Below, one piece after another: positions 1,033 through 22,766 of a stretch of DNA of 32,000 nt (its first letter is position 1; each line of letters starts with the position of its first letter). This DNA comes from a virus. A program made the translations under genes and the position numbers. The DNA is taken from positions 120,001-152,000 of the IMG/VR virus record IMGVR_UViG_3300035670_013237. One strand, written 5' to 3'. Under the pieces are notes generated by a model that worked only from the letters and a program-made list of their open reading frames with translations, made no database searches and was not told where the DNA came from.

Positions 1033-1073
1033 AGAACTGTGGGGTGGGAGAGTGCCCGCCCAGGAGATGAGCG

Positions 1074-1274
1074 ATGCAAGAGTTTACCATCATGCGAGCC
1101 CGCCGAACCACAGGTGGCGAGTACGTCATCCTGTGCCACCTGCCTGAGAACAAGGTGACGCCCTGGGTGACGTGGCGTGCGGCGACAGTCGACGGCCAGG
1201 GCGCGTACCGGGGCAACTATTTCTACGCGAACGAAGAGACCTTCGCATACGAGGACTTCAACACTCGCACCTGA
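1074..1274 (+). CDS. hypothetical protein (66 aa)
   Basis: Listed ORF preceded by promoter cassette 1002..1032, leader hairpin 1042-1061 and SD AGGAG 1062-1066. Confidence 0.65.
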   Translation: MQEFTIMRARRTTGGEYVILCHLPENKVTPWVTWRAATVDGQGAYRGNYFYANEETFAYEDFNTRT

Positions 1275-1284
1275 GGGAGACCAC

Positions 1285-1563
1285 ATGAGAGAGCACTTCA
1301 TCCCATCCGCCAAAGATCCAACCAGGCGGATTCACGTGATCGAATACGGAGGCAGGTGGTGGGCTCGAGTGGGTGGCTCACCACAGGTGTCCATGTTCTG
1401 GCGCACTCCCAGGGGAGACTGGGGCTTTAGCGCCCCTGTGGACCCTCCCCCGGGCCTTGCAGCATGGTCCACTGACGACACGGTGGAGTGGATCGCAGAC
1501 CTCCGGACGGTCATCAGCTTCTTCGAAGAACAACAACGATACTTCAAGGCGACGGAACTATGA
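1285..1563 (+). CDS. hypothetical protein (92 aa)
   Basis: Internal ATG of listed ORF 1177..1563 with SD GGGAGA 6 nt upstream. It starts 8 nt after the stop of the previous gene. The earlier part of the ORF overlaps 1074..1274. Confidence 0.65.
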   Translation: MREHFIPSAKDPTRRIHVIEYGGRWWARVGGSPQVSMFWRTPRGDWGFSAPVDPPPGLAAWSTDDTVEWIADLRTVISFFEEQQRYFKATEL

Positions 1564-1784
1564 ACACTCTCATTATCGCTGGTGTCATCCTGCTGGGCGT
1601 CGGGCTCGCGGCATTCGTCACATGGGGCGTGCTCCAGGCCGTGCTCGACCTCATAGTCTTGAGGCGCATGAGAGAGGGAGACACCGAGGGCGTAAAGCGT
1701 GCCCTCGATCACAGCTCCGTACGGATCTCTCAGCGTGTTAGAATCACAGCAGAGGTCTGGCTCAAGGACCGGGAGGGACCATGA
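1560..1784 (+). CDS. small membrane protein (74 aa, one N-terminal TM helix)
   Basis: ATG at 1560 inside listed ORF 1488..1784. ATGA overlap with the upstream stop. Hydrophobic MNTLIIAGVILLGVGLAAFVTWGVL. Confidence 0.65.
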   Translation: MNTLIIAGVILLGVGLAAFVTWGVLQAVLDLIVLRRMREGDTEGVKRALDHSSVRISQRVRITAEVWLKDREGP

Positions 1785-2146
1785 CTACGTACTATGAGAA
1801 GCGGGGACGTCGATACTATCCAGTCGCAGAACACATGACACGTGACGCTCTTCCGGAAGGTCACTATCTGGTCACAGTCAAGCCCGGCATCACTTCGTGG
1901 ACGAGGGACGTCACTCCTGACACGGCTGCATTGAAGGCGGCACAGAAGATGGTGATCGATGAACTGGCAAAGTGGATCTATGAGGCAGGCCAGGCACGAC
2001 CCTCAACGACTCCACTTACTCCTGAACAGAAGGTGGCATGGGAGGTGTGCCGTGCCGCCCACGGCGGAGGACCCTTCTACCTGGAGTTCCCCGCCGCGCA
2101 GGACATCGCCAAGAAATTCCTGGATCGATTGGACGGGCTCCCATGA
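1781..2146 (+). CDS. hypothetical protein (121 aa)
   Basis: Listed ORF. ATGA start/stop overlap with 1560..1784, suggesting translational coupling. Confidence 0.7.
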   Translation: MTTYYEKRGRRYYPVAEHMTRDALPEGHYLVTVKPGITSWTRDVTPDTAALKAAQKMVIDELAKWIYEAGQARPSTTPLTPEQKVAWEVCRAAHGGGPFYLEFPAAQDIAKKFLDRLDGLP

Positions 2147-2283
2147 GCCTCATCATTGTCATGGTGCTCCTGGCTGCGTGCCTCGTGGGGCTTGCACCAC
2201 CCCAGTTCAGACGGCACTTGACATACATTTACGCGACCCTCATCTTCTTCATGGCACTCTTGAACATTTGTGTTAAACCCTAG
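2143..2283 (+). CDS. small membrane protein (46 aa)
   Basis: ATG 2143 inside listed ORF 2038..2283. ATGA overlap with the upstream stop. Two hydrophobic stretches (MSLIIVMVLLAACLVGLA, LIFFMALLNI). Confidence 0.55.
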   Translation: MSLIIVMVLLAACLVGLAPPQFRRHLTYIYATLIFFMALLNICVKP

Positions 2284-2300
2284 CTTTAATTTGCGCTGAT

Positions 2301-2331
2301 GGTGCAAACCTCGATTGGTCCATGTTACAAA
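2301..2331 (+). promoter_or_regulatory. promoter cassette (2370..3716)
   Basis: GGTGCAAACC, 15 nt, TACAAA. Leader hairpin GGTGG-N9-CCACC 2342-2360, SD GGAGG. Confidence 0.6.
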
Positions 2332-2369
2332 GGGATCATGAGGTGGCAACGGACACCACCGGAGGAAAT

Positions 2370-3716
2370 ATGTGGGCATCAACTGAGACTGACTTCAACC
2401 TCGAGCGGCATCTCATCACGTTCCTGCAGGAGTCACCCTTCTACGCGGAAATCTCCCGGCACGTCCGGAAGACCCCCACGACCCGTCTCCCGACTGCGGC
2501 CATCGCCTGGAATAAGGAGTCGGACGAGCTGACCCTGTACTGGAACCCGGGGTTCTTCGCGGAGCTCTCGAACTGGGAGATTCGCGGCGTCCTCCTCCAC
2601 GAGTTTAACCACCTCGTCTTCGGCCACCTGGCTGCCCGCCACCGCGAGCCCCCGAAGCTCTGGAACATCGCCACGGACTTGGCGATCAACTCCCTCATCA
2701 TCGCCTCAGCAGGCAACCGCCGCGAGGGCGATAAACCTGATGCACGCCCCCTGCCCAAGGGCGCTCTCATCCCAGGTCAAGCCAGCGCCATCGACCCTGA
2801 GACCCTGAAGAAGATGCCCCCTGAGGTACGGGAAGCGCATGAAAAGATGTCGGCCCTCATCGCATCCTTCCCACCGCTCCAGACTTCAGAGTGGTATTTC
2901 TTCAAGCTCCTGGAAGAGCTGGGCAACGACCCTGGTTCATGCTTCGGCCCTGGAGGAGACCAAGACCAAGATGGTGACACCATCCCAGGCTCTCCCACCC
3001 TGGACGACCACAGTGGCTGGGGCGGTGTGCCCGATGACATGCGCGAGTACCTTGAGGGGAAGGTCAAGGGTATCCTGGAGAAGGCGGTCAACCACGCTGA
3101 CAGCAGCCCGAATGGCTGGGGTTCCATGCCTGCGGACGTCCAGCGCGAGATTCGCAAGTCCGTGTCCCAGGTGATCGACTGGCGCAGCGTCCTCCGCCAG
3201 TTCGTGGGCTCGCTCACTCGAGCGGAGCGCTCGACCTCGATCAAGCGCATCAATAAGAGGTATCCTTACATCCATCCAGGCACGAAACGAGGGTACACTG
3301 CGCGCCTCTGCGTCGCGATCGACCAGTCAGGTTCGGTAGACGACGGCCAGCTCCAGAGCTTCTTCTCTGAGCTTGCGAGCCTCACGCGCCGGGTGTCGGT
3401 GGATATCCTCCCATTCGACTGCGCGGCACAGGAGTCCGACATCTTTGAGTGGAAGAAAGGCACAAATCCGAAGCTCAAGCGGGTCCGGGGTGGAGGCACG
3501 GACTTCAACGCCCCCACCCGGCTCATCAACAACCCGAAGCACAGGGGACGCTGGGATGGGTTCCTCATCATGACCGATGGGGAGTGCTCGGCGCCTGAAT
3601 CGTCCCGGGTAAAGCGTGGCTGGGTCCTGAGCCGGGGCTGCAAGCTCCACTTCAGCTCCTCCGAGCTCCAAGTGTTCCTGGATGACGCGAGGAAAATGAC
3701 GGGAGCTTGGCGCTGA
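2370..3716 (+). CDS. DUF2201-type putative metallopeptidase with C-terminal VWA-like domain
   Basis: The start is taken at ATG 2370, with SD GGAGG 2361-2365 after leader hairpin 2342-2360. The listed ORF begins at 2322. Motifs LLHEFNHLVFGH plus WNIATDLAINS form an HExxH core. The C-terminal LCVAIDQSGSV...MTDGE is a VWA/MIDAS-like DxSGS. Confidence 0.8.
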   Translation: MWASTETDFNLERHLITFLQESPFYAEISRHVRKTPTTRLPTAAIAWNKESDELTLYWNPGFFAELSNWEIRGVLLHEFNHLVFGHLAARHREPPKLWNIATDLAINSLIIASAGNRREGDKPDARPLPKGALIPGQASAIDPETLKKMPPEVREAHEKMSALIASFPPLQTSEWYFFKLLEELGNDPGSCFGPGGDQDQDGDTIPGSPTLDDHSGWGGVPDDMREYLEGKVKGILEKAVNHADSSPNGWGSMPADVQREIRKSVSQVIDWRSVLRQFVGSLTRAERSTSIKRINKRYPYIHPGTKRGYTARLCVAIDQSGSVDDGQLQSFFSELASLTRRVSVDILPFDCAAQESDIFEWKKGTNPKLKRVRGGGTDFNAPTRLINNPKHRGRWDGFLIMTDGECSAPESSRVKRGWVLSRGCKLHFSSSELQVFLDDARKMTGAWR

Positions 3717-3717
3717 C

Positions 3718-3748
3718 GGTGCAAATCGCCGACGAAACATGGTATCCT
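3718..3748 (+). promoter_or_regulatory. promoter cassette (3777..4004)
   Basis: GGTGCAAATC, 15 nt, TGG-TATCCT. The decamer starts 2 nt after the upstream stop. Confidence 0.5.
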
Positions 3749-3776
3749 TGACCCAGGAATAGAGAGAGGAGGCTAT

Positions 3777-4004
3777 ATGCCAGTCGTCATCGGTATCGTA
3801 ATCTTCCTTGCTGTCTGTTGGATGTTCCCCCGGCTCATACTCTTCTGCTTCGTGACCCCCATCGCAGCCTTCGTCCTAGGCGGGTTCTTGTGGGCGCTCG
3901 GGGCGCTGTATGATAAGTCCCTCAACAACTTGGACACTTTCTGCATCTTCGTGGGCGTGGCCTGGATCGCCTCAGCCTTCTATTTCATGAAAGACACAGC
4001 GTAA
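3777..4004 (+). CDS. membrane protein (75 aa, probably 3 TM)
   Basis: Listed ORF. SD GAGGAGG 5 nt upstream. Promoter 3718..3748. Strongly hydrophobic sequence. Confidence 0.7.
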   Translation: MPVVIGIVIFLAVCWMFPRLILFCFVTPIAAFVLGGFLWALGALYDKSLNNLDTFCIFVGVAWIASAFYFMKDTA

Positions 4005-4006
4005 AA

Positions 4007-4037
4007 GGTGCAAATCAACATCGAACTGTGTTACAAC
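4007..4037 (+). promoter_or_regulatory. promoter cassette (4081..4398)
   Basis: GGTGCAAATC, 15 nt, TGT-TACAAC. Leader hairpin GGCGGGGA-CGGC-TCCCCGCC 4048-4067, SD GAGGAG. Confidence 0.65.
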
Positions 4038-4080
4038 AGATTCATGAGGCGGGGACGGCTCCCCGCCGAGGAGAACGAAG

Positions 4081-4398
4081 ATGCACATCACCGAAACACA
4101 TCACGGCGACATCATCATCCGCTCTTATGTCCTCCCCCGGGAGAGGATCGAGCTTCACTCCTATAGGAAAGGAGAGCTCATCAGCGTGCGATCTTTCTCG
4201 GTGGGCGACGCGGCGGAGTACGACTCGTTCAACCTCTCTTACTGGGGGAAGATTAAGTCCATCACGGAGAAATCCATAACGATCGCCGAGAGCTGGGGCA
4301 GCAGGTCCCGCCGGCTCAAGCTGGATACCTTCGCATGGAGGAACTGGGACTGGACCCTCGAGGGTGCCCAGGAACGGAGCAGAAATTTCATGGATTGA
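4081..4398 (+). CDS. hypothetical protein, paralogue family A (with 7187..7525 and 4475..4690)
   Basis: Listed ORF with a full cassette upstream: promoter 4007..4037, hairpin 4048-4067, SD GAGGAG. Shares GDxAEYDSxNxxYxG.I.SIT.KS..I...S....L..DTF.WRNW with 7187..7525. Confidence 0.75.
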   Translation: MHITETHHGDIIIRSYVLPRERIELHSYRKGELISVRSFSVGDAAEYDSFNLSYWGKIKSITEKSITIAESWGSRSRRLKLDTFAWRNWDWTLEGAQERSRNFMD

Positions 4399-4429
4399 GG
4401 TGCAAACCTTCACCGGACCGTGATACAAC
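4399..4429 (+). promoter_or_regulatory. promoter cassette (4475..4690)
   Basis: GGTGCAAACC, 15 nt, TGA-TACAAC. Hairpin GGTGGGG-N8-CCCCACC 4440-4461, SD AAGGAG. Confidence 0.65.
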
Positions 4430-4474
4430 AGATTCAAGAGGTGGGGAGGGGAATCCCCACCAAGGAGAATGTCG

Positions 4475-4690
4475 ATGGGAACTATCATTGCTGGTGGTAA
4501 GGACTTCAAGGCCGGTGATCGAGCAGTGTGTGATACCCTCTGGGTGTCCTCAGACGGACCTCTTCCTGGTTACCTGGCCACCTACGAAGGAACCATCAAG
4601 TCCATCACCCAGAAGAATGTGGTGATGGTGGACGACACCGGGTGTGTCAGGCGCCTGAAGCACGAGGAATTCGTCAAGAAGAATTCCTAA
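4475..4690 (+). CDS. hypothetical protein, short relative of family A
   Basis: The listed ORF starts at 4469, but SD AAGGAG (4462-4467) is only 1 nt from that ATG and 7 nt from the ATG at 4475. GTIKSITQKNVVM...RRLKHEEF aligns with the C-terminal half of 4081..4398. Confidence 0.65.
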   Translation: MGTIIAGGKDFKAGDRAVCDTLWVSSDGPLPGYLATYEGTIKSITQKNVVMVDDTGCVRRLKHEEFVKKNS

Positions 4691-4692
4691 AG

Positions 4693-4723
4693 GGTGCAAA
4701 TCAACATCGAGCTGTGATACAAA
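4693..4723 (+). promoter_or_regulatory. promoter cassette (4767..5417)
   Basis: GGTGCAAATC, 15 nt, TGA-TACAAA. Hairpin 4734-4753 is identical to 4048-4067. Confidence 0.65.
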
Positions 4724-4766
4724 TAATTCATGAGGCGGGGACGGCTCCCCGCCGAGGAGAACGAAG

Positions 4767-5417
4767 ATGCCGATCATCGTCAAGAGCAATGGGGAAGAGA
4801 CCACCACCTACACCGGCCGCGTTGTTGAGGTCACCGAGACCCGGGAACAGCGCAACCTGAGCGACACGCTGGACTACAGCGACTGGCAGACCGTCCGGGT
4901 CGTCCATGCCCTCGTCTGGCTCGGCCCCGAAGGCAAGCCGGAGGACCAGTTCACGTGGATTGATTGTTCCAACCTCTTCGCTTGGCGTGGTGAGCCCGTC
5001 AAGACCGCGGTGGTCGACGGCGCTCCCAACAACTTCATGTCGGCCCTCAACCCCGAGGCGCCGCTGATGTGGACCAACCTCACCATCTACAAACAATTCA
5101 AGATTGACGAAGCTCGCGAGGCCGAGGAAGCCCGGGCTCGTCTCTTCGCCCAGGTTGAGGCGGAGCGTCAGGCCTTCGCCGACAAAAAGTCGGCCGCGGC
5201 TCTGAAGCGCCAAGCCACGGACGAGGCCAAGTGCGCCGCCGCGGAAGCCCTGCTCGAGGGTGTGGCCAAGGGTAAGACCTACACCACCAAGGAGGGCTTC
5301 ACTGGAAACCTCTTCTGGAAGGGCGCCAAGAAATATCGCGGCACCTGGTCCGCCCGGGTGGGGCTCAAGGACCCCAACGGCCAGGTGGTCTGGACTAGTG
5401 TGGACCAACTAGTCTAA
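4767..5417 (+). CDS. hypothetical protein (216 aa) with central Ala/Glu-rich helical segment
   Basis: Listed ORF. The upstream cassette is almost identical to that of 4081: promoter 4693..4723, hairpin 4734-4753, SD GAGGAG. Confidence 0.75.
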   Translation: MPIIVKSNGEETTTYTGRVVEVTETREQRNLSDTLDYSDWQTVRVVHALVWLGPEGKPEDQFTWIDCSNLFAWRGEPVKTAVVDGAPNNFMSALNPEAPLMWTNLTIYKQFKIDEAREAEEARARLFAQVEAERQAFADKKSAAALKRQATDEAKCAAAEALLEGVAKGKTYTTKEGFTGNLFWKGAKKYRGTWSARVGLKDPNGQVVWTSVDQLV

Positions 5418-5486
5418 TGGAGGAACTAGTCTCCGGACTAGTCAAATGGACTAGTAAGGCGCCCAACTAGTGGTTGGGCAACTAGT
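5394..5486. promoter_or_regulatory. cluster of seven ACTAGT (RRACTAGTM) sites
   Basis: ACTAGT at 5394, 5408, 5425, 5437, 5450, 5466 and 5481, with spacings of 12-17 nt. It spans the last codons of 4767..5417 and the region upstream of wHTH gene 5582..5905. Sites 5425/5437 form the inverted repeat ACTAGTC-TCCG-GACTAGT. Confidence 0.6.
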
Positions 5487-5514
5487 CCACATGCACCGTG
5501 GAATCTGGTACGAT
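5484..5514 (+). promoter_or_regulatory. degenerate promoter variant overlapped by an ACTAGT site (5582..6093 unit)
   Basis: AGTCCACATG (5 of 7 core matches), 15 nt, TGG-TACGAT. ACTAGT at 5481-5486 overlaps the decamer. Confidence 0.35.
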
Positions 5515-5581
5515 GACACGGTTTGTACGAATGGACTACCTCATGGTAGAATAACCACAACAAGCAAGGAGCAAAGAGAAC

Positions 5582-5905
5582 ATGCGAAAGACTTCTACTA
5601 CCACTGCAACCGCCACTTCCACGAATCGCAACCGCACACCCCGCATTGGTATCACCGTCGCTGAGGTACTTGAAGACCTCATCAGCAATGGCCCCGCCAC
5701 CGAGAGCCAGCTCCTCGGGCCCTATCGCAACGACTCTCGTGATCGTTGGGGCAACTCCCTCTTCCTGGTGGGCGAGGGCCTGGGCTCGGAGGCTTCGCTC
5801 GTGAAGCGAGGGCTCGTGAAGGTGGTCGGGTCGCTCTATCGGGCCCGTGTGTATGACATCACGCCGAAGGGCCGCGCGGCGCTCCGCCGGTACGGGACGA
5901 TGTGA
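5582..5905 (+). CDS. winged-helix DNA-binding protein (107 aa)
   Basis: Listed ORF with SD AAGGAG upstream. ITVAEVLEDLISNGPATESQL...LVKRGLVKVV...YDITPKGRAAL has the helix-turn-helix plus wing pattern of MarR/PadR-like wHTH proteins. It lies immediately downstream of the 7x ACTAGT cluster. Confidence 0.7.
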   Translation: MRKTSTTTATATSTNRNRTPRIGITVAEVLEDLISNGPATESQLLGPYRNDSRDRWGNSLFLVGEGLGSEASLVKRGLVKVVGSLYRARVYDITPKGRAALRRYGTM

Positions 5906-6093
5906 TGAAGACTTTGACAATCCAGCTGGAAGAGGAAGACGTCGAGGTTGTCCTCGAGGCCCTTGAGCTCCTCCACGATAGGCTGCTGGAGTTCGACACA
6001 CACTGGGATAACGATGAGGAAACTCGGAGGGACCTGGAGGCAGTGCGGCGAGTGGGCGCCATCTTCGATACGCTCGGTGTAAATCAATCCTAA
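5905..6093 (+). CDS. small acidic protein (62 aa)
   Basis: The listed ORF starts at GTG 5902. ATG 5905 overlaps the upstream TGA (TGATG). Glu/Asp-rich helical sequence. Confidence 0.6.
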   Translation: MKTLTIQLEEEDVEVVLEALELLHDRLLEFDTHWDNDEETRRDLEAVRRVGAIFDTLGVNQS

Positions 6094-6106
6094 ACGGTGA
6101 TACAAA
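6076..6106 (+). promoter_or_regulatory. promoter cassette reading into ORF-less structured region
   Basis: GGTGTAAATC (inside the end of CDS 5905..6093), 15 nt, TGA-TACAAA. Hairpin GGAGGA-N8-TCCTCC 6115-6134, SD GAGGAAG, then only a 26-codon ORF. Confidence 0.55.
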
Positions 6107-6412
6107 AGAATCATGGAGGACAACAGGGTCCTCCACACCAGAGGAAGATGAGCACCCGCCTGCTGCGCTGTGGCTCACGAAGATACTCGGGCTTGAGCTC
6201 TGCAGCAAGAGAGCTTGCCACTTGTTGAGGCTCTCTTGCTGCTCAAGAGCTCTTGATGCAAGAGTGCGGTGGCAGGTGCCTCGAGGTGAGCCACACTTGG
6301 GGGGTGTCCAGCCTCACCGCTACCGCCACTGTGATTGCACTCTCCATGGCCATGGAGGTGCTGTGGACTCCTTGAGTGTAGCCTAACTTGGCAATAGATT
6401 TACACCCAGATC
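6107..6412. ncRNA. candidate structured non-coding (sense/antisense) RNA locus
   Basis: About 300 nt with no ORF over 36 codons that is compatible with the flanking signals. It is bracketed by convergent promoter cassettes (6076..6106 plus strand, 6375..6406 minus strand). It contains a 13-bp perfect stem (6202-6214/6230-6242), a 16-nt perfect palindrome CTCCATGGCCATGGAG and long-range complementary arms. Only a 26-codon ORF (6148..6228) follows the leader and SD. Confidence 0.3.
6375..6406 (-). promoter_or_regulatory. minus-strand promoter cassette convergent with 6076..6106
   Basis: The reverse complement reads AAAAAAAAGTT...GGTGTAAATC, 16 nt, TACACT. It points leftward into 6148-6370, where no convincing ORF exists. 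Confidence 0.45.
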
Positions 6413-6437
6413 AGAAAAAAACTTTTTTTTCGAAAAC

Positions 6438-6468
6438 GGTATAAAACGCGAATCGACCGTGATATAAC
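6438..6468 (+). promoter_or_regulatory. promoter cassette (6511..6759)
   Basis: GGTATAAAAC, 15 nt, TGA-TATAAC. Leader TTCATCCGGTGGGGATGGTCCCCCGCC 6472-6498. Confidence 0.55.
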
Positions 6469-6510
6469 TAATTCATCCGGTGGGGATGGTCCCCCGCCGC
6501 GGAGGTCGAA

Positions 6511-6759
6511 ATGAATCATCAATTCGTTGAACAGGATTCGGCGCGCGAAAATCTAACCAACGCCATCAAGGCGTTCGATGGGGCCCGGCTCCCCGCCGCG
6601 CTGGAGACCATCGTGGATGTCTTCGCCATCGAGGAGGAGGAGGAGCTGCTGGACGAAGTCCTCCTCGCCGCGACGTGCGCCGGATTCGATGACGGGGGCG
6701 ACGACGAACGCTGGGCCTGGAACAGCGCCATCGAATGGTGGGAGAGCAACCACGGATAA
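6511..6759 (+). CDS. small acidic protein (82 aa)
   Basis: Listed ORF. Promoter 6438..6468, leader hairpin 6479-6498, SD GGAGG. Confidence 0.7.
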   Translation: MNHQFVEQDSARENLTNAIKAFDGARLPAALETIVDVFAIEEEEELLDEVLLAATCAGFDDGGDDERWAWNSAIEWWESNHG

Positions 6760-6779
6760 TTCCGAAAAAGTGGGGGGAG

Positions 6780-6810
6780 GGTGCAAACCCTCCCGGCTCC
6801 ATGATATAAC
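6780..6810 (+). promoter_or_regulatory. promoter cassette (6857..7093)
   Basis: A-run, GGTGCAAACC in the loop of stem GGGAGGG/CCCTCCC (6775-6794), 15 nt, TGA-TATAAC. Leader TTCATCCGGTGGGGA. Confidence 0.65.
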
Positions 6811-6856
6811 CAATTCATCCGGTGGGGATGGTGCCCTAACCGGCAACGGAGCGAAA

Positions 6857-7093
6857 ATGTCAACGAACGTACTCAGCATCCGGACCATCACTGACCTTCT
6901 TACCCCGGCCGAGCGCAACGAGTTCTGGCATTACCTCGGAGGAGAGGTTACTTCTCGTGAAGCCGAAACCGGGATCGTGGGCCCCTCCAAAGTAAAAGAA
7001 ATCCTGGGGTTCTATATGGATCTCACTGCGAAGGACTCCCGCGACCGCGGCATCGTCTTTCCAAAGGGCGCCAAGTTCCAGCTTGAGCTCTAA
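6857..7093 (+). CDS. hypothetical protein, paralogue family B (with 14003..14248 on the minus strand)
   Basis: ATG 6857 inside listed ORF 6578..7093. Promoter 6780..6810 and leader lie inside the long ORF, so the N-terminal extension is rejected. Shares VLSI.TITD.LTP.E...FW.YLG.EVTS.EA.TGIVGP..VK...PKGAKFQLE with the minus-strand copy. Confidence 0.75.
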   Translation: MSTNVLSIRTITDLLTPAERNEFWHYLGGEVTSREAETGIVGPSKVKEILGFYMDLTAKDSRDRGIVFPKGAKFQLEL

Positions 7094-7109
7094 AAAAGTT
7101 GGGCACGGG

Positions 7110-13566: not shown

Positions 13567-13597
13567 GCTATAACACAAAGGGCCGGCGGTTTGCACC
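13567..13597 (-). promoter_or_regulatory. promoter cassette (13324..13539)
   Basis: The minus strand reads AAAAACTT, GGTGCAAACC in the loop of the 9-bp stem GGCCGGCGG/CCGCCGGCC (13581-13604), 15 nt, TATAGC. Confidence 0.55.
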
Positions 13598-13618
13598 GCC
13601 GGCCCCAAGTTTTTGGGA

Positions 13619-13906
13619 TCATTCGTAGGGGTTGAGGCCTACGGATTCCATGAGGAAGACCCCAGGTTCGATGGCACCGTCCTCGTCCCGCCAGATGAGA
13701 GTGGAGGGGAACTTATTGTCGAAGGCGAGGGAGAGTTCGTGGAGCCGGCTGGTGTCCTTTGCCAGGAGGGCGTGGTATTCTTCGAACCCGGCCTTGAACC
13801 TGGAGATTTGCCCGGCCGTGGCCGCCTTGCAGTCAAAGTCATCGAGCTGGGCGGTATCGGTTTGGGCGGTGAAGGTGCCATCGAAGAAGCAGATGCCGTG
13901 TGCCAT
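13619..13906 (-). CDS. hypothetical protein (95 aa)
   Basis: ATG 13906 inside listed ORF 13619..13966. The leader (13925-13953) and promoter 13957..13987 occupy the rest of the ORF. Confidence 0.65.
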   Translation of the reverse strand: MAHGICFFDGTFTAQTDTAQLDDFDCKAATAGQISRFKAGFEEYHALLAKDTSRLHELSLAFDNKFPSTLIWRDEDGAIEPGVFLMESVGLNPYE

Positions 13907-13956
13907 TGCGGTTACCCCGTTTTTCCGTGGGGAGGTATTCCCCACCGGATGAATTA

Positions 13957-13987
13957 GTTGTACCATAAGGAGCCGGGGGTTTGCACC
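13957..13987 (-). promoter_or_regulatory. promoter cassette (13619..13906)
   Basis: The minus strand reads AAAAAAAGTG, GGTGCAAACC in the loop of GCCGGGGG/CCCCCGGC, 15 nt, TGG-TACAAC, then TAATTCATCCGGTGGGGA. Confidence 0.65.
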
Positions 13988-14002
13988 CCCGGCGCACTTT
14001 TT

Positions 14003-14248
14003 TTAGCGCTCAAGTTGGAATTTGGCACCTTTGGGAAGCTCGATGCCTTTGATCTCGCGGTCAATGATGTGGCCCAACCCGATTTGGTCCAGGACAAATT
14101 TGACGGTCCGCGGACCAACGATGCCGGTGTCGGCTTCCTTGGAGGTAACCTCGTCGCCAAGGTAACCCCAAAAATCGTCGTACTCCTTGGGGGTAAGGCG
14201 GTCCGTGATGGTTTTGATGCTGAGCACATAGGCGGTTTTGGCAGGCAT
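14003..14248 (-). CDS. hypothetical protein, paralogue family B (inverted copy of 6857..7093)
   Basis: The listed ORF reaches 14254. The second ATG (14248) has better spacing to SD AAGGA and aligns with the start of the paralogue. Promoter 14293..14323, leader 14261-14289. Confidence 0.75.
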   Translation of the reverse strand: MPAKTAYVLSIKTITDRLTPKEYDDFWGYLGDEVTSKEADTGIVGPRTVKFVLDQIGLGHIIDREIKGIELPKGAKFQLER

Positions 14249-14292
14249 TTTCATTCCTTACCGGGAGGATCCATTCCCCACCGGATGAATTA

Positions 14293-14323
14293 GTTGTACC
14301 ATAGGTTGGAGATGGTTTGCACC
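14293..14323 (-). promoter_or_regulatory. promoter cassette (14003..14248)
   Basis: The minus strand reads AAAAAAGTTT, GGTGCAAACC, 15 nt, TGG-TACAAC, then TAATTCATCCGGTGGGGAATGGATCCTCCCGG. Confidence 0.65.
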
Positions 14324-14350
14324 GCCGCAACAAACTTTTTTAAAAGATTC

Positions 14351-14998
14351 TTAGCGGCTCCACTCGAACCCGGGCGCAACTGTGCCGAAGGCTTCGTGCA
14401 CCTTGTCCACCGCCTCCGCATCGATGTGCCGGAGGTCCTCAGCGGTCAGCGCCCTGCCGTCCCTGCGGTCGACCAGCATGTGCACAACCGCGGTGGAGTA
14501 CCGCTGCGCGAGCCCGTCGTGGCTCCGCTCTGACAGCACGCTCCAAGTCGACAGAGCCGCCGTCGGGAGCAAGACAGTGTCCTGCCGAGCGTCCAGGATG
14601 AGACAGATGCTGTCGACGAGCGCTCCGTCGTCTCCCACGGTCCTGTTCGCCACGAGGTCCTCGATCAGCTTCTTGGTGACCTTCTTCGACCACGGGTGCT
14701 CGCAGTGCATCGGGGTGCCCCCCGACACAGGACCCAGGCGCCACCGAGCTCGGTTGTAGCGCGTCTCAGGCCCACGCCACTCGACGGGCAGCTGCGGGAG
14801 CGCATTGGTGGCTCTATTGAAGGCAGTGAGACGGGCACTTCTCTGAAGGCCTGAGACCCCATGGGGAGCTAGTTCATCTCGGACACGCATGAGACCCAAC
14901 CATGCCCGCGCGGTCTCCTTCAGTAGTGCCCAGTACTGGGGCTCTCCGCGGAAGTCAAGCCACTTGCCGTCAGGATCGATGTGCTTCGGTCTAGTCAT
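14351..14998 (-). CDS. hypothetical protein (215 aa)
   Basis: Listed ORF with GC-rich third codon positions. The long upstream control region contains a perfect ACTAGT-bearing inverted repeat. No family recognised by eye. Confidence 0.75.
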   Translation of the reverse strand: MTRPKHIDPDGKWLDFRGEPQYWALLKETARAWLGLMRVRDELAPHGVSGLQRSARLTAFNRATNALPQLPVEWRGPETRYNRARWRLGPVSGGTPMHCEHPWSKKVTKKLIEDLVANRTVGDDGALVDSICLILDARQDTVLLPTAALSTWSVLSERSHDGLAQRYSTAVVHMLVDRRDGRALTAEDLRHIDAEAVDKVHEAFGTVAPGFEWSR

Positions 14999-15100
14999 AT
15001 ACTACCTCGGCCTGGGGAGTGCCACTCCCACTCCCGTCCCTCTGCTTCTCTCATGAAGGTAGTCCATCAAGGAGCCCAGAGAAGCTTCAACTCAGCTCAA

Positions 15101-15128
15101 ACTAGTAGTCACCGGAGAGACTACTAGT
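15101..15128. promoter_or_regulatory. perfect inverted repeat ACTAGTAGTC-N8-GACTACTAGT (operator candidate)
   Basis: 10-bp arms at 15101-15110 and 15119-15128, about 100 nt upstream of the start of 14351..14998. A TCTAGT variant lies at 14990-14995, next to the start codon. Confidence 0.55.
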
Positions 15129-15150
15129 ACACCAAGCGGAGGCTCTTAAT

Positions 15151-15184
15151 CACAAAAGAGAGGGTCCAGGCTGGACCTCTCTCG
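15151..15184 (-). terminator. promoter-proximal terminator-like hairpin in the leader of 14351..14998
   Basis: The minus strand reads GAGAGAGGTCCA-GCC-TGGACCCTCTC followed by TTTTGTGA. It is enclosed by a second 10-bp pairing CCAAGCGGAG/CTCCGCTTGG (15134-15143 / 15189-15198). Confidence 0.45.
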
Positions 15185-15201
15185 CTACTCCGCTTGGGCT
15201 T

Positions 15202-15233
15202 ATTATACAAGGATGGGCCCGGGGGTTTGCACC
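15202..15233 (-). promoter_or_regulatory. promoter cassette followed by terminator-like leader (upstream of 14351..14998)
   Basis: On the minus strand, GGTGCAAACC sits in the loop of the 11-bp stem GGGCCCGGGGG/CCCCCGGGCCC (15215-15242). 16 nt, TATAAT. Confidence 0.55.
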
Positions 15234-15252
15234 CCCGGGCCCACGGACCCCG

Positions 15253-15453
15253 TCAAGAGAGGGGGATTATGGTAACCCCCGGTTTCTCCACGAAGAGGCC
15301 CGAGTCCGGCTCCTGGCCCGTGACCGCGAACACATGGTCATGGAGGTCTTCGTCCGGGAGGAAGAGGGCGCCGAAGGGACCGTCCTCCTCGAAGAGGGTG
15401 CCAGTGATGGTTCCGAGCTCGGGATAGTTGGCGTTGGTATAAGCGTAGCGCAT
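15253..15453 (-). CDS. hypothetical protein (66 aa)
   Basis: Listed ORF. Promoter 15503..15533, leader 15471-15499, SD AAGGAAG. Confidence 0.65.
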   Translation of the reverse strand: MRYAYTNANYPELGTITGTLFEEDGPFGALFLPDEDLHDHVFAVTGQEPDSGLFVEKPGVTIIPLS

Positions 15454-15502
15454 TTGCTTTCTTCCTTTTGCCGGGAGGATCCATTCCCCACCGGATGAAC
15501 CA

Positions 15503-15533
15503 GTTGTACCATGGTTGGGCTGGCTTTTGCACC
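15503..15533 (-). promoter_or_regulatory. promoter cassette (15253..15453)
   Basis: The minus strand reads AAAAAAAGTT, GGTGCAAAAG, 15 nt, TGG-TACAAC. The leader is identical to that of 14003..14248. Confidence 0.65.
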
Positions 15534-15580
15534 GCCCCGCGAACTTTTTTTGAGCCCCACCGCGCTGAGGGCAGCGGGCG

Positions 15581-15611
15581 ATTATACAATAGGATCCCGG
15601 GGGTTTGCACC
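15581..15611 (-). promoter_or_regulatory. orphan/tandem promoter cassette (no ORF before the next cassette)
   Basis: On the minus strand, GGTGCAAACC sits in the loop of CCGGGGG/CCCCCGG. 15 nt, TATAAT. Only about 45 nt separate it from the A-run of cassette 15503..15533. Confidence 0.5.
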
Positions 15612-15628
15612 CCCGGTCCCAACATTCC

Positions 15629-15931
15629 TCAACCCCCGATGAAGGCCTTCCCGGCCGGGGTCAAGGTCCAAAGGGTGGCGTTCCCCTTCTTACCCGCAGG
15701 CTGGATGAACCCCCGGATGAAGAGGGATGAGGCCTGGCCGTGGCCCGTTGGTCCGCCGAAGTAATTGGTGGTCAACCGAGGGGCGAAGTAGGATTGGCCC
15801 CAGGTTCGATGGCACACCGGCTTATCCCAGGGGATGACCGGCTTCCGCGCCTCGGCGGAAGTGCACCCGGTCGGGCCGGCGGCGGCGATGGTACGAAGGA
15901 TGGTGAGCGCGGTATTTCCGAGATTGGGCAT
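15629..15931 (-). CDS. possible winged-helix protein (100 aa)
   Basis: Listed ORF. Promoter 15980..16010, leader 15950-15974, SD GGAGGAAG. LTILRTIAAAGPTGCTSAEA...GFIQPAGKKGNATLWTLTPAGKAFI resembles an HTH plus wing. Confidence 0.7.
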   Translation of the reverse strand: MPNLGNTALTILRTIAAAGPTGCTSAEARKPVIPWDKPVCHRTWGQSYFAPRLTTNYFGGPTGHGQASSLFIRGFIQPAGKKGNATLWTLTPAGKAFIGG

Positions 15932-15979
15932 TTGGCTTCCTCCAATTTACCGGGGGGTTCCTCCCCACCGGATGTTTTA

Positions 15980-16010
15980 TTTGTACCATAGGTTGGTTGG
16001 GCTTTGCACC
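15980..16010 (-). promoter_or_regulatory. promoter cassette (15629..15931)
   Basis: The minus strand reads AAAAAAAAGTT, GGTGCAAAGC, 15 nt, TGG-TACAAA, then ACATCCGGTGGGGAGGAACCCCCCGG. Confidence 0.65.
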
Positions 16011-16069
16011 TTTTCCAACTTTTTTTTACCAGGTTGGTTTTTTCCTTTCCATCCCCACCTGATGAATTA

Positions 16070-16100
16070 TTTGTACCATAGGCCATTTTCGTTTTTCACT
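16070..16100 (-). promoter_or_regulatory. orphan promoter cassette with truncated leader
   Basis: The minus strand reads AGTGAAAAAC, 15 nt, TGG-TACAAA, then TAATTCATCAGGTGGGGATGG. It runs straight into the A-run of cassette 15980..16010. Only a 7-codon ORF is present. Confidence 0.45.
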
Positions 16101-16129
16101 AAAATCGAAAATTAGTTTTTTTAAAAAAC

Positions 16130-16160
16130 CGTGTAAAAGGGGCCCCGGCCCCATTATAAT
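16130..16160 (+). promoter_or_regulatory. promoter cassette reading rightward into the ORF-less GGGGCCCC region
   Basis: CGTGTAAAAG, 15 nt (GGGCCCCGGCCCCAT), perfect TATAAT. Divergent from 16070..16100 across 29 nt of A/T. Confidence 0.5.
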
Positions 16161-16250
16161 ACGGGGGCCCCGGGGCCCCCCATTAAGGGCCATTAAATGG
16201 GGCCCCTTAAGCCCCTAAAACCATTGGTTTAAATGGGGGGCCCCGCCCCT
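16140..16250. repeat. array of GGGGCCCC-type palindromes alternating with A/T blocks
   Basis: GGGGCCCCGGCCCC (16139-16152), GGGGGCCCCGGGGCCCCCC (16164-16182), GGGCC (16187-16191), GGGGCCCC (16199-16206), GCCCC (16211-16215), GGGGGGCCCCGCCCC (16235-16249). These are separated by ATTATAATAC, ATTAA, ATTAAAT, TTAA, TAAAACCATTGGTTTAAAT and followed by TAAAAAAGG. No ORF is supported. Confidence 0.6.
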
Positions 16251-16500
16251 AAAAAAGGCAACCTTTGTGGTGCAAAACTGGCGGTGGGGCGCGCTAAGTG
16301 CACTCAAAAATTCTGGAGAAAATTCCGTCACCGTTCACCCCTTGCTCCCGCCCACCTCATGGACTCGTGTCCTCTCGTGTTCCCTCGTCTTCTTAAAAGT
16401 GGGTATGGGGTGGGGGGTGATTCCCGGAGGGCCCCCGGCGTCCCGAAAAATTCTGGAAACATTTTTGGGTTGGAATGGTCCTCGCGGGCGCTCGTTTCCC

Positions 16501-22648: not shown

Positions 22649-22679
22649 GGTGTAAAACTCCTGTGGGCTGTGGTACACT
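22649..22679 (+). promoter_or_regulatory. promoter cassette (22767..23405)
   Basis: A T-run then GGTGTAAAAC, 15 nt, TGG-TACACT. It lies just after terminator 22583..22614. Confidence 0.6.
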
Positions 22680-22766
22680 ACATTCAAGAAGAGCGGAGGG
22701 TGGTTCCTCGGCTCGAATAGAAATGCCCGGTAGCCAATCCGGAATGCACACGGAGAATTAGAGAAA

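Follow-up and report, generated by a model that had tools for sequence, protein, structure and literature searches.

A recurrent leader hairpin in the promoter cassettes of small orphan genes in an uncultivated jumbo phage

Stem-loops within the promoter cassettes of small orphan genes have been described in T4-type phages as promoter-early stem-loop (PeSL) elements (Arbiol 2010, PMC2839356; Comeau 2014, PMC4122927), and repeated motifs with a proposed role in translation, the start-associated sequences (SAS) and extended start-associated sequences (ESAS), have been reported from Cluster K mycobacteriophages and Cluster EF Microbacterium phages (PMC3203893; PMC7302621). Bacterial and phage mRNAs are stabilised by 5′-terminal stem-loops and by ribosome binding at a strong Shine-Dalgarno (SD) sequence (Emory 1992 and Hambraeus 2002, as reviewed in PMC7509114). 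Here we describe a GC-rich hairpin that recurs in the 5′ leaders of small genes, directly downstream of predicted promoters, in 32,000 nt of viral DNA (positions 120,001–152,000 of IMG/VR record IMGVR_UViG_3300035670_013237; this whole stretch is hereafter the window). The window is an orphan-gene-rich (hyperplastic) region of an uncultivated jumbo phage, with a source sequence of ~271 kb. In the left 16 kb (58–60% GC) small genes are densely packed; those up to ~12.2 kb are encoded on the + strand and those between 12.3 and 16.1 kb on the − strand. A lower-GC arm follows.

The cassettes of this phage resemble the PeSL elements in their overall order (here by consensus only), namely an AT-rich tract, a strong sigma70-like promoter with 17-bp spacing, a stem-loop built from a G-run and a C-run, an SD and an ATG, and in being concentrated among small orphan genes. 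In both cases related genomes differ by insertions, replacements and reorderings with junctions in the cassettes, as seen here with two related contigs (L045 and L051), and some of the present cassettes carry a GC palindrome over the −35, as one PeSL subclass does. The main stem-loop here, however, is fixed at about +5 to +28 relative to the predicted start site, within the gene's own mRNA, and has no T-run, whereas that of a PeSL is a terminator located within the promoter or ahead of it. The two also differ in promoter consensus (here GTGYAAA / TGnTACAAC), and the phage is unrelated to the T4-type, high in GC and without a nucleotide match to the window among 50,697 phage records (megablast of 7 kb). 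The SAS and ESAS share with the hairpin that a repeated phage-specific motif stands ahead of many non-structural genes, and ESAS, like the hairpin, is an imperfect inverted repeat whose spacer varies and whose left half is the better conserved, placed directly ahead of the SD. Departures from the ESAS do not support RNA pairing while those seen here do, and the motif here, unlike SAS, is tied to a promoter; the 13-bp SAS consensus GGGATAGGAGCCC had three matches with two mismatches in the window against 0.95 expected, none of them at a gene start.

Twenty-seven promoter-like units, all co-oriented with the downstream gene, were found in the window. Each consists of (G)TG(C/T)AAA, a 17-bp spacer and TA(C/T)A(A/C)N, with TG at −15/−14 as in extended −10 promoters, and GTGCAAA by itself is present in 23 copies, where 4.4 would be expected. 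Near −50 there is a moderately conserved A-tract that resembles an UP element; the spacer between the hexamers is not conserved. From this geometry we infer that the units are sigma70-type promoters, and the hexamer after which the first-pass annotation had placed its conserved leader is their −10-like TACAAC. Past the −10 the information content is highest at T(−2), C(−1) and A(+1), +1 being by our convention the A 7 nt after the −10 hexamer, so that the A of TCA is the predicted start site. The gene starting at ATG 19110, which has no SD, lies 8 nt after such a −10, and this leaderless-like placement fits a start site at that distance. The WRATTCAT block, taken in the first-pass annotation as the opening of the leader, is indeed conserved, but it spans the positions 1–8 nt after the −10 and thus corresponds to the discriminator and probable start site; as most of it lies upstream of +1, only its last two or three bases would be present in the RNA. 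With the predicted +1, the leader RNA has 2–4 nt before the stem begins.

The canonical hairpin has the form NN-GGYGGGG(A), a loop of 4–7 nt and (U)CCCCRCC, with a stem of 6–9 bp. Every hairpin listed in the first-pass annotation was recovered, on the + strand at 2342–2360, 4048–4067, 4440–4461, 6115–6134, 6479–6498, 7151–7170, 7565–7584 and 8229–8248 and on the − strand at 13925–13953, 14261–14289, 15471–15499 and 15950–15974, including the identity between 14261–14289 and 15471–15499. The 5′ arm CCGGTGGGGA, which had been called invariant, occurs in only six copies and the general arm is GGYGGGG(A); TCANNNGGYGGGG was found 11 times where 0.23 would be expected. In copies of the CCGG type the register is shifted, with CCGG paired to CCGG and a bulged U (or G). 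The GGYGGGG type accounts for about 13 window copies, and four to six more have unrelated stems. Stems of the latter kind stand at the canonical position at 6114–6135, 9704–9728, 11578–11600, 11809–11820 and 22691–22714. No hairpin follows the promoters at 9089, 9341 and 10289 or the weaker promoter at 3719–3754. Searches against Rfam returned only two tRNAs at the gathering threshold, and nothing at E up to 1 over 3990–8300.

Within the first 30 nt after the putative +1, a minimum free energy (MFE) of −12 kcal/mol or lower was reached at 16 of the 27 promoters, compared with 4.4% of 4968 sense-strand windows from the same region (binomial p 2e-15, Mann–Whitney p 1e-7), although these p-values overstate independence because the copies are paralogous. 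The per-copy z scores against dinucleotide shuffles were modest (mean −1.25), since G-runs and C-runs fold after shuffling too, and the case therefore rests on position and covariation rather than on p-values. At the 12 promoters off the canonical model, eight leaders folded at −8 kcal/mol or lower, against a background of 21.7% (p 0.001), and three at −12 kcal/mol or lower (p 0.014).

Hairpin position follows the promoter and not the SD. Genes 1285, 1781, 5582 and 10759, which are internal to operons and have good SDs, lack the hairpin, and hairpins also head the transcript of a tRNA-Lys gene and that of a probable non-coding RNA (6113–6440). The same hairpin family is reused on ~60% of the sigma70-type promoter set. 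A survey of leaders, made after four start codons that a script had called inside hairpin loops were corrected, separated two classes. All eight leaders of 20 nt or less had no hairpin, while 38 of 40 leaders of 29 nt or more folded at −11 kcal/mol or lower and the other two formed weaker hairpins, so that no long unstructured leader was present among those surveyed. In the short class (17–20 nt) the SD lies 5–10 nt from the predicted 5′ end. Whether a cassette has the hairpin or lacks it is conserved between orthologous cassettes of related contigs. The stated distance of 0–3 nt between stem and SD holds for about 10 of 15 window copies as read from the sequences, with 4–7 nt in the rest; overall the distance ranges over 0–11 nt, and the SD is never within the stem.

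Related metagenome contigs supplied ~25 additional cassette copies. A contig scan yielded the motif-bearing relatives L035, L038, L040, L045, L051 and L054, with 12 cassettes in 9 kb of L040, and L071–L074 were reached via a homologue of gene 7187. As MAFFT failed to register the 3′ arms across differing loop lengths, a covariance model (R1) was chosen, in which 37 high-scoring copies, 34 of them distinct, were aligned; in the alignment of distinct copies 86% of cells were paired. Stem pair 3 is U-A in 18, U-G in seven and C-G in six copies, and never C-A. Stem pair 7 is G-C in 30 and C-G in three copies, the latter being those of L038, whose arms change from GGYGG-GG/CC-CCRCC to GGYGG-CC/GG-CCRCC with two adjacent pairs flipped. 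The covariation score was 0.175 against 0.111 in shuffles (none of 500 reached 0.175) and 0.03–0.07 with slid partners, with the caveat that the alignment is fitted to the model and the shuffles ignore relatedness; an ungapped seed alignment and RNAalifold agreed with it. Changes between U-A and U-G recur between orthologs (8218 versus L071_7368; 7140 versus L051_475 and L071_9958). The compensatory changes proposed earlier are thus borne out, by the covariation at pair 3, the L038 flip and the replacement of whole stems, and the hairpin is a conserved RNA-level structure kept by selection.

Strand comparison points the same way. When both strands of 39 distinct copies were folded, 25 copies were more stable as the sense and 12 as the antisense strand (Wilcoxon p 8e-4), with 22 G-U pairs on the sense and nine on the antisense strand, and this better folding of the sense strand argues for an RNA structure and not a DNA palindrome. 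The same reasoning accounts for the asymmetry between the arms; a sequence-specific binder had been postulated from an invariant 5′ arm. Changes in the G-rich 5′ arm break pairs while the C-rich arm tolerates C-to-U, all 3′-arm variants are of the kind that G-U pairing permits, and no binder is required to explain the better conserved 5′ arm. In T7 late transcripts (the phi10 leader), the conserved initially transcribed GGGAGA forms the 5′ arm of a hairpin, and there, too, the 5′ arm would be the conserved one and the 3′ arm the freer; T7 represents a phage-RNA-polymerase promoter class. In the loop, a YGG motif is kept across copies.

The cassettes share ~75 nt of common sequence, which suggests that they serve as homologous recombination sites that shuffle the genes they flank, and this recombination would in turn homogenise the cassettes and keep them alike. 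Genes orthologous to those of the window in L045, L051 and L040, compared over 1781–2146, 7111–9402, 11824–12207 and 13939–16031, are 76–94% identical in nucleotides and reordered, with junctions within the promoter/leader cassettes. In L045 the orthologs of genes 1781, 11833 and 7598 are joined, and in L051 the counterpart of window 8210–9092 is joined to that of 7111–7561 and then to that of 9312–9402. One junction is a hybrid cassette with a 9061-type spacer and a 7140-type leader. Cassettes that double as recombination modules, described up to now for T4-type phages, are thereby suggested also for an unrelated phage lineage, in which the stem-loop, unlike that of the T4-type cassettes, would lie within the mRNA.

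We consider that the hairpin has about an even chance of being a 5′-terminal protective and insulating element within these recombining promoter cassettes. Such a cassette would run, in order, through an UP-like A-tract, GTGYAAA, a 17-bp spacer ending in TG, TACAAC and AGATTC-A(+1), followed by 2–4 nt, a GC hairpin of 6–9 bp, the SD and the start codon. At the extreme 5′ end of the mRNA, the hairpin would shield the transcript against 5′-end-dependent decay (of the RppH/RNase E or RNase J type), and a stem placed just before the SD would keep the SD single-stranded, so that short monocistronic transcripts would be longer-lived and well translated. In hairpin-less cassettes the leader would be so short that the initiating ribosome itself covers the 5′ end. 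Of the three roles suggested in the first-pass annotation, that of a 5′ stabiliser fits best, as structure and position are kept and sequence is not. As reviewed in PMC7509114, E. coli ompA (Emory 1992) and the B. subtilis aprE leader (Hambraeus 2002) likewise combine a short leader, a stem-loop near the 5′ end and a strong SD, and act by structure and position rather than sequence, which recalls the unrelated stems found here at the same site; they are single genes, whereas here one hairpin family serves many promoters.

Several points weigh against this interpretation. The start site, and with it the distance of the hairpin from the 5′ end, is predicted from promoter geometry, which could differ, since the −10 mostly has no T at −7, a base normally needed by enzymes of the sigma70 type. 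A purely structural role leaves the conserved loop YGG unexplained, and a single-stranded 5′ tail of 4 nt would give borderline protection against RppH or RNase E. A stem too close to the SD lowered the stability of B. subtilis ermC mRNA (Sharp and Bechhofer 2005, cited in PMC7509114). Independent covariation events are few (the C-G subfamily, the L038 GG/CC flip and the whole-stem replacements), and the shuffle controls are generous, as the copies share ancestry. Should the stabiliser role prove true, the ~75-bp cassette would be a compact, portable expression part with a strong promoter, a protective 5′ hairpin and an SD. For this lineage of uncultivated jumbo phages, the findings define an RNA motif and a class of promoters that are new and well supported, and they offer a practical rule for finding the transcription units and true start codons of its orphan genes; a new mechanism is unlikely unless a specific binder is found.

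The alternative that survives best, though we regard it as unlikely, is a shared translational operator, in which a phage or host RNA-binding protein on the hairpin switches the translation of all cassette genes together. Structure alone does not require the degree of conservation seen in the 5′ arm GGYGGGG and the loop YGG, in most copies 0–3 nt separate stem and SD, relatives agree gene by gene in having or lacking the hairpin, and about half of the loops contain GGA with a second GGA or GGAG in the SD 12–16 nt away, a layout resembling the two-site geometry of CsrA targets. Other observations speak against it. The arm asymmetry is explained without a binder, by 3′-arm variants that are only those G-U pairing permits; loop length varies over 4–7 nt; the stem register shifts (bulged U, CCGG type); the canonical stem can be replaced at its site by an unrelated one, even between orthologs; the spacing from hairpin to SD ranges up to 11 nt; and the hairpin also stands ahead of a tRNA gene. 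None of the 62 window proteins belongs to a known RNA-binding Pfam family, the window covering 32 kb of the ~271-kb genome. The operator suggested in the first-pass annotation is accordingly not favoured, as the hairpin tracks promoters and not SDs, while its contact with the SD and its conserved loop remain in that idea's favour. In the sites of T4 RegA and gp32 and in the MS2 coat-protein hairpin, recognition involves either a sequence-specific loop or an unstructured site overlapping the start codon. The present element resembles these phage operators as an RNA element that several genes share close to their ribosome-binding sites, through which one protein could control many mRNAs, and differs from them in its variable loop length and stem sequence, its SD outside the stem and its lack of a known binder. 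A more specific proposal, also unlikely and ranked below the general one, is a dedicated regulator (phage-encoded or hijacked from the host) that reads the GGYGGGG arm and YGG loop and times the translation or decay of dozens of early orphan genes; if true, it would mean a structure-specific regulon operator embedded in mobile promoter cassettes.

Next in order, and with a low probability in our estimate, comes a PeSL-type transcriptional attenuator or insulator, in which RNA polymerase coming in from upstream cassettes (or, in a variant of the same idea, from the cassette's own promoter until an antiterminator acts) is stopped or paused at the stem-loop, which would limit read-through along the row of small genes. 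The overall architecture flanking orphan genes is PeSL-like and PeSL stem-loops terminated transcription in reporter assays (PMC2839356), and one cassette of the window has a terminator-like hairpin with a T-run at exactly this position (9704–9734). The canonical copies, however, have no T-run after the stem, where a purine-rich SD stands instead, and they were absent from the terminator-like sites predicted on the sense strand. A stem downstream of the predicted start would also terminate the transcript of its own gene, and the position is fixed relative to the start site, while PeSL stem-loops move within or upstream of the promoter.

It is quite improbable that the hairpin has no function of its own and is carried along by cassette duplication and recombination, the compensatory changes then reflecting a few inherited subfamilies. 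Cassettes do recombine, near-identical copies exist (for example 4008–4083 and 4694–4769), and the C-G variants of pair 3 share a flanking ATGA and may descend from one event. Yet the stem keeps its pairing although spacer and loop diverge freely, the site has acquired unrelated stems, U-A/U-G changes occur independently in orthologs, and descent by itself would not lead one to expect the G-U bias of the sense strand. Inverted repeats shortly after a start site are common as operators, and a dimeric repressor bound to DNA from +5 to +28, with one conserved half-site, could block all of these promoters. We consider this DNA operator very improbable, as the spacing of the half-sites varies by 4–8 bp, changes in the second half-site keep RNA pairing (T opposite G) while breaking DNA symmetry, the sense strand folds better and whole stems are replaced. 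A processing site, the remaining role offered in the first-pass annotation, is unlikely because stems of only 6–9 bp are too short for RNase III, whose known double-stranded substrates are longer. Other candidates were rejected directly. The SD is never in the stem and the abutting 3′ arm cannot fold onto it, which excludes an SD-sequestering switch or thermometer; the ATG in TTCATG, considered as the start of a leaderless upstream open reading frame (ORF), is not conserved (ATC, AAG and AGG are also seen) and is out of frame; GGTGG is a Chi-like core, but the motif flips with gene orientation and gives no full Chi match, against a recombination hotspot of that type; and the G-tracts, paired in a stable stem, do not suit a G-quadruplex.

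On the + strand, the first cassette (1003–1076) has −35 GTGCAAA, −10 TACAAC at 1027–1032, hairpin GGGTGGG/CCCGCCC at 1042–1061, SD AGGAG and ATG at 1074, with an MFE of −14.4 kcal/mol and 19.7 bits with model R1. The cassette at 2302–2372, ahead of the gene of a DUF2201 metallopeptidase/VWA protein, has the short hairpin GGTGG-N9-CCACC at 2342–2360. At 4008–4083 the cassette is canonical, with hairpin GGCGGGGA-cggc-TCCCCGCC at 4048–4067, SD GAGGAG adjoining the stem and ATG at 4081 (−17.4 kcal/mol, z −3.2, 64.4 bits), and its near-duplicate at 4694–4769 (~90% identity, hairpin 4734–4753) stands ahead of an unrelated gene of 216 aa. Between them lies the canonical cassette 4400–4477, with GGTGGGGA-N6-TCCCCACC at 4440–4461 and U-A at stem pair 3. 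The genes at 4081–4398 and 7187–7525, each with its own canonical cassette, encode paralogous small proteins (105 and 112 aa), and only three homologues of gene 7187 were found in a database of 5.8 billion proteins.

The cassette at 6077–6150 has the unrelated stem (T)GGAGGAC/GTCCTCC(A) at 6114–6135 (MFE −13.9 kcal/mol). The + strand transcript predicted from its promoter (6077–6106), 6113–6440, may be a structured non-coding RNA. It holds an ORF of 26 aa only, folds at −139 kcal/mol over 328 nt (z −4.9) and runs to an A8-C-T8 palindrome, and Rfam has no match to it. The next cassette (6439–6513) is canonical with −35 TATAAA, hairpin GGTGGGG/CCCCGCC at 6479–6498 and U-G at stem pair 3, and that at 6781–6859 shows the shifted pairing CCGGT-GGG...CCC-t-AACCGG at 6819–6843. 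Canonical copies follow at 7111–7189 (hairpin 7151–7170), whose orthologs in L051 and L071 retain the hairpin with U-A instead of U-G, at 7525–7600 (hairpin 7565–7584) and at 8189–8264, where hairpin GGTGGGGA/TCCCTGCC at 8229–8248 has two G-U pairs and the L071 ortholog has TCCCTACC.

Standard promoters without a hairpin were found at 9060–9116 (18-nt leader; likewise hairpin-less in the ortholog L071_8238), 9312–9370 (20-nt leader; likewise in L051 and L071) and 10260–10318 (ATTCAT present, 20-nt leader; likewise in L071 and L074). In the cassette at 9668–9778 a standard promoter (9668–9697) is followed from about +1 by AAAATGGGAC-aaaaa-GTCCCATTTT and a T-run (9704–9734), a terminator-like hairpin (z −4.1) ~40 nt before the gene start at 9776, which may be an attenuator or the upstream gene's terminator inside the next cassette. 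The promoter at 11544–11600 serves tRNA-Lys (11689–11764) and has the unrelated hairpin ATGTTGG/CCAACAT at 11578–11600 with no SD. At 11768–11835 there is an unrelated short hairpin, GCCC-ctcg-GGGC (11809–11820), where the L045 ortholog of gene 11833 (93.5% identical) has the canonical GGCGGGGA hairpin in place of GCCC/GGGC. The lower-GC arm has the same promoter type at 22650–22714, with the unrelated hairpin GAGC-g-GAGG/CCTC-g-GCTC at 22691–22714 (−15.4 kcal/mol, z −3.3).

On the − strand, the cassette at 15929–16009 has hairpin CCGG(T)GGGG-aggaa-CCCCCCGG at 15950–15971, SD GGAGG 6 nt downstream and ATG at 15931. The hairpin CCGG(T)GGGG...CCTCCCGG of the cassette at 15451–15532 (15471–15494, with a bulged U and one G-U pair) is the same as that at 14261–14284 in the cassette at 14252–14322, and the cassette at 13913–13986 has CC(G)GTGGGGA-atacc-TCCCCACGG at 13925–13948. 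A decayed copy at 16022–16098 keeps the promoter, ATTCAT and the 5′ arm CAGGTGGGGA, without a matching 3′ arm or a gene (29 bits, −0.1 kcal/mol), and the next cassette comes directly after it.

In some cassettes the −35 (TGCAAA) lies in the loop of a GC palindrome that follows an A-run, at 6775–6794, 7105–7122, 13580–13605, 13972–13993, 15220–15240 and 15598–15615, and also at 8168–8210; two of these belong to the cassettes at 6781–6859 (6775–6794) and 13913–13986 (13972–13993). They form a hairpin with a T-run terminator on the antisense strand only and are candidates for antisense terminators or for stem-loops of the PeSL kind over the −35. As the sense strand has no T-run, the A-tract and palindrome were rejected as a terminator of the upstream gene.

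Proteins of the window matched those of diverse phages at 24–42% identity, and Pfam gave six weak matches among the 62. Two tRNAs are encoded in the window, as are the DUF2201 metallopeptidase/VWA protein mentioned above and a sigma factor (29277–30092, + strand) with clear regions 2 and 3 and a weak, partial match to region 4, which could be the reader of GTGYAAA and of the unusual −10 (TACAAC, no T at −7); hardly anything else in the window could be recognised. Near-identical fragments of the window are present in two sequencing runs and two Joint Genome Institute (JGI) samples, and the near-identical strain contigs L021–L028 added no variation. Exact-motif scans of IMG/VR and of 185,579 species genomes gave single chance matches only, with no promoter context. 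In L029–L032, contigs of up to 340 kb that were found as relatives of the DUF2201 protein (~50% identity), the promoter and leader motif are absent, so these contigs were of no use for covariation. The genes of these contigs appear leaderless, with TAGGAT, 6–7 nt and ATG, as does the DUF2201 gene in L029 (9950–10000) and L030 (9960–9985), and L029 has a dense tRNA array at 12.3–21.3 kb.

Between the divergent arms, at 16080–16500, GGGGCCCC/GGCCCC palindromes are interleaved with TTAA/ATTAAA and long A/T runs, and this interval has no convincing gene. The palindrome ACTAGT occurs 12 times in the window against 3.1 expected, and every copy is intergenic. Its clusters at 5394–5486, 12950–13018 and 15101–15128 lie upstream of genes without a GTGYAAA promoter, and seven copies with 12–17 nt spacing stand between genes 4767–5417 and 5582–5905; these clusters may be an operator array for a DNA-binding regulator.

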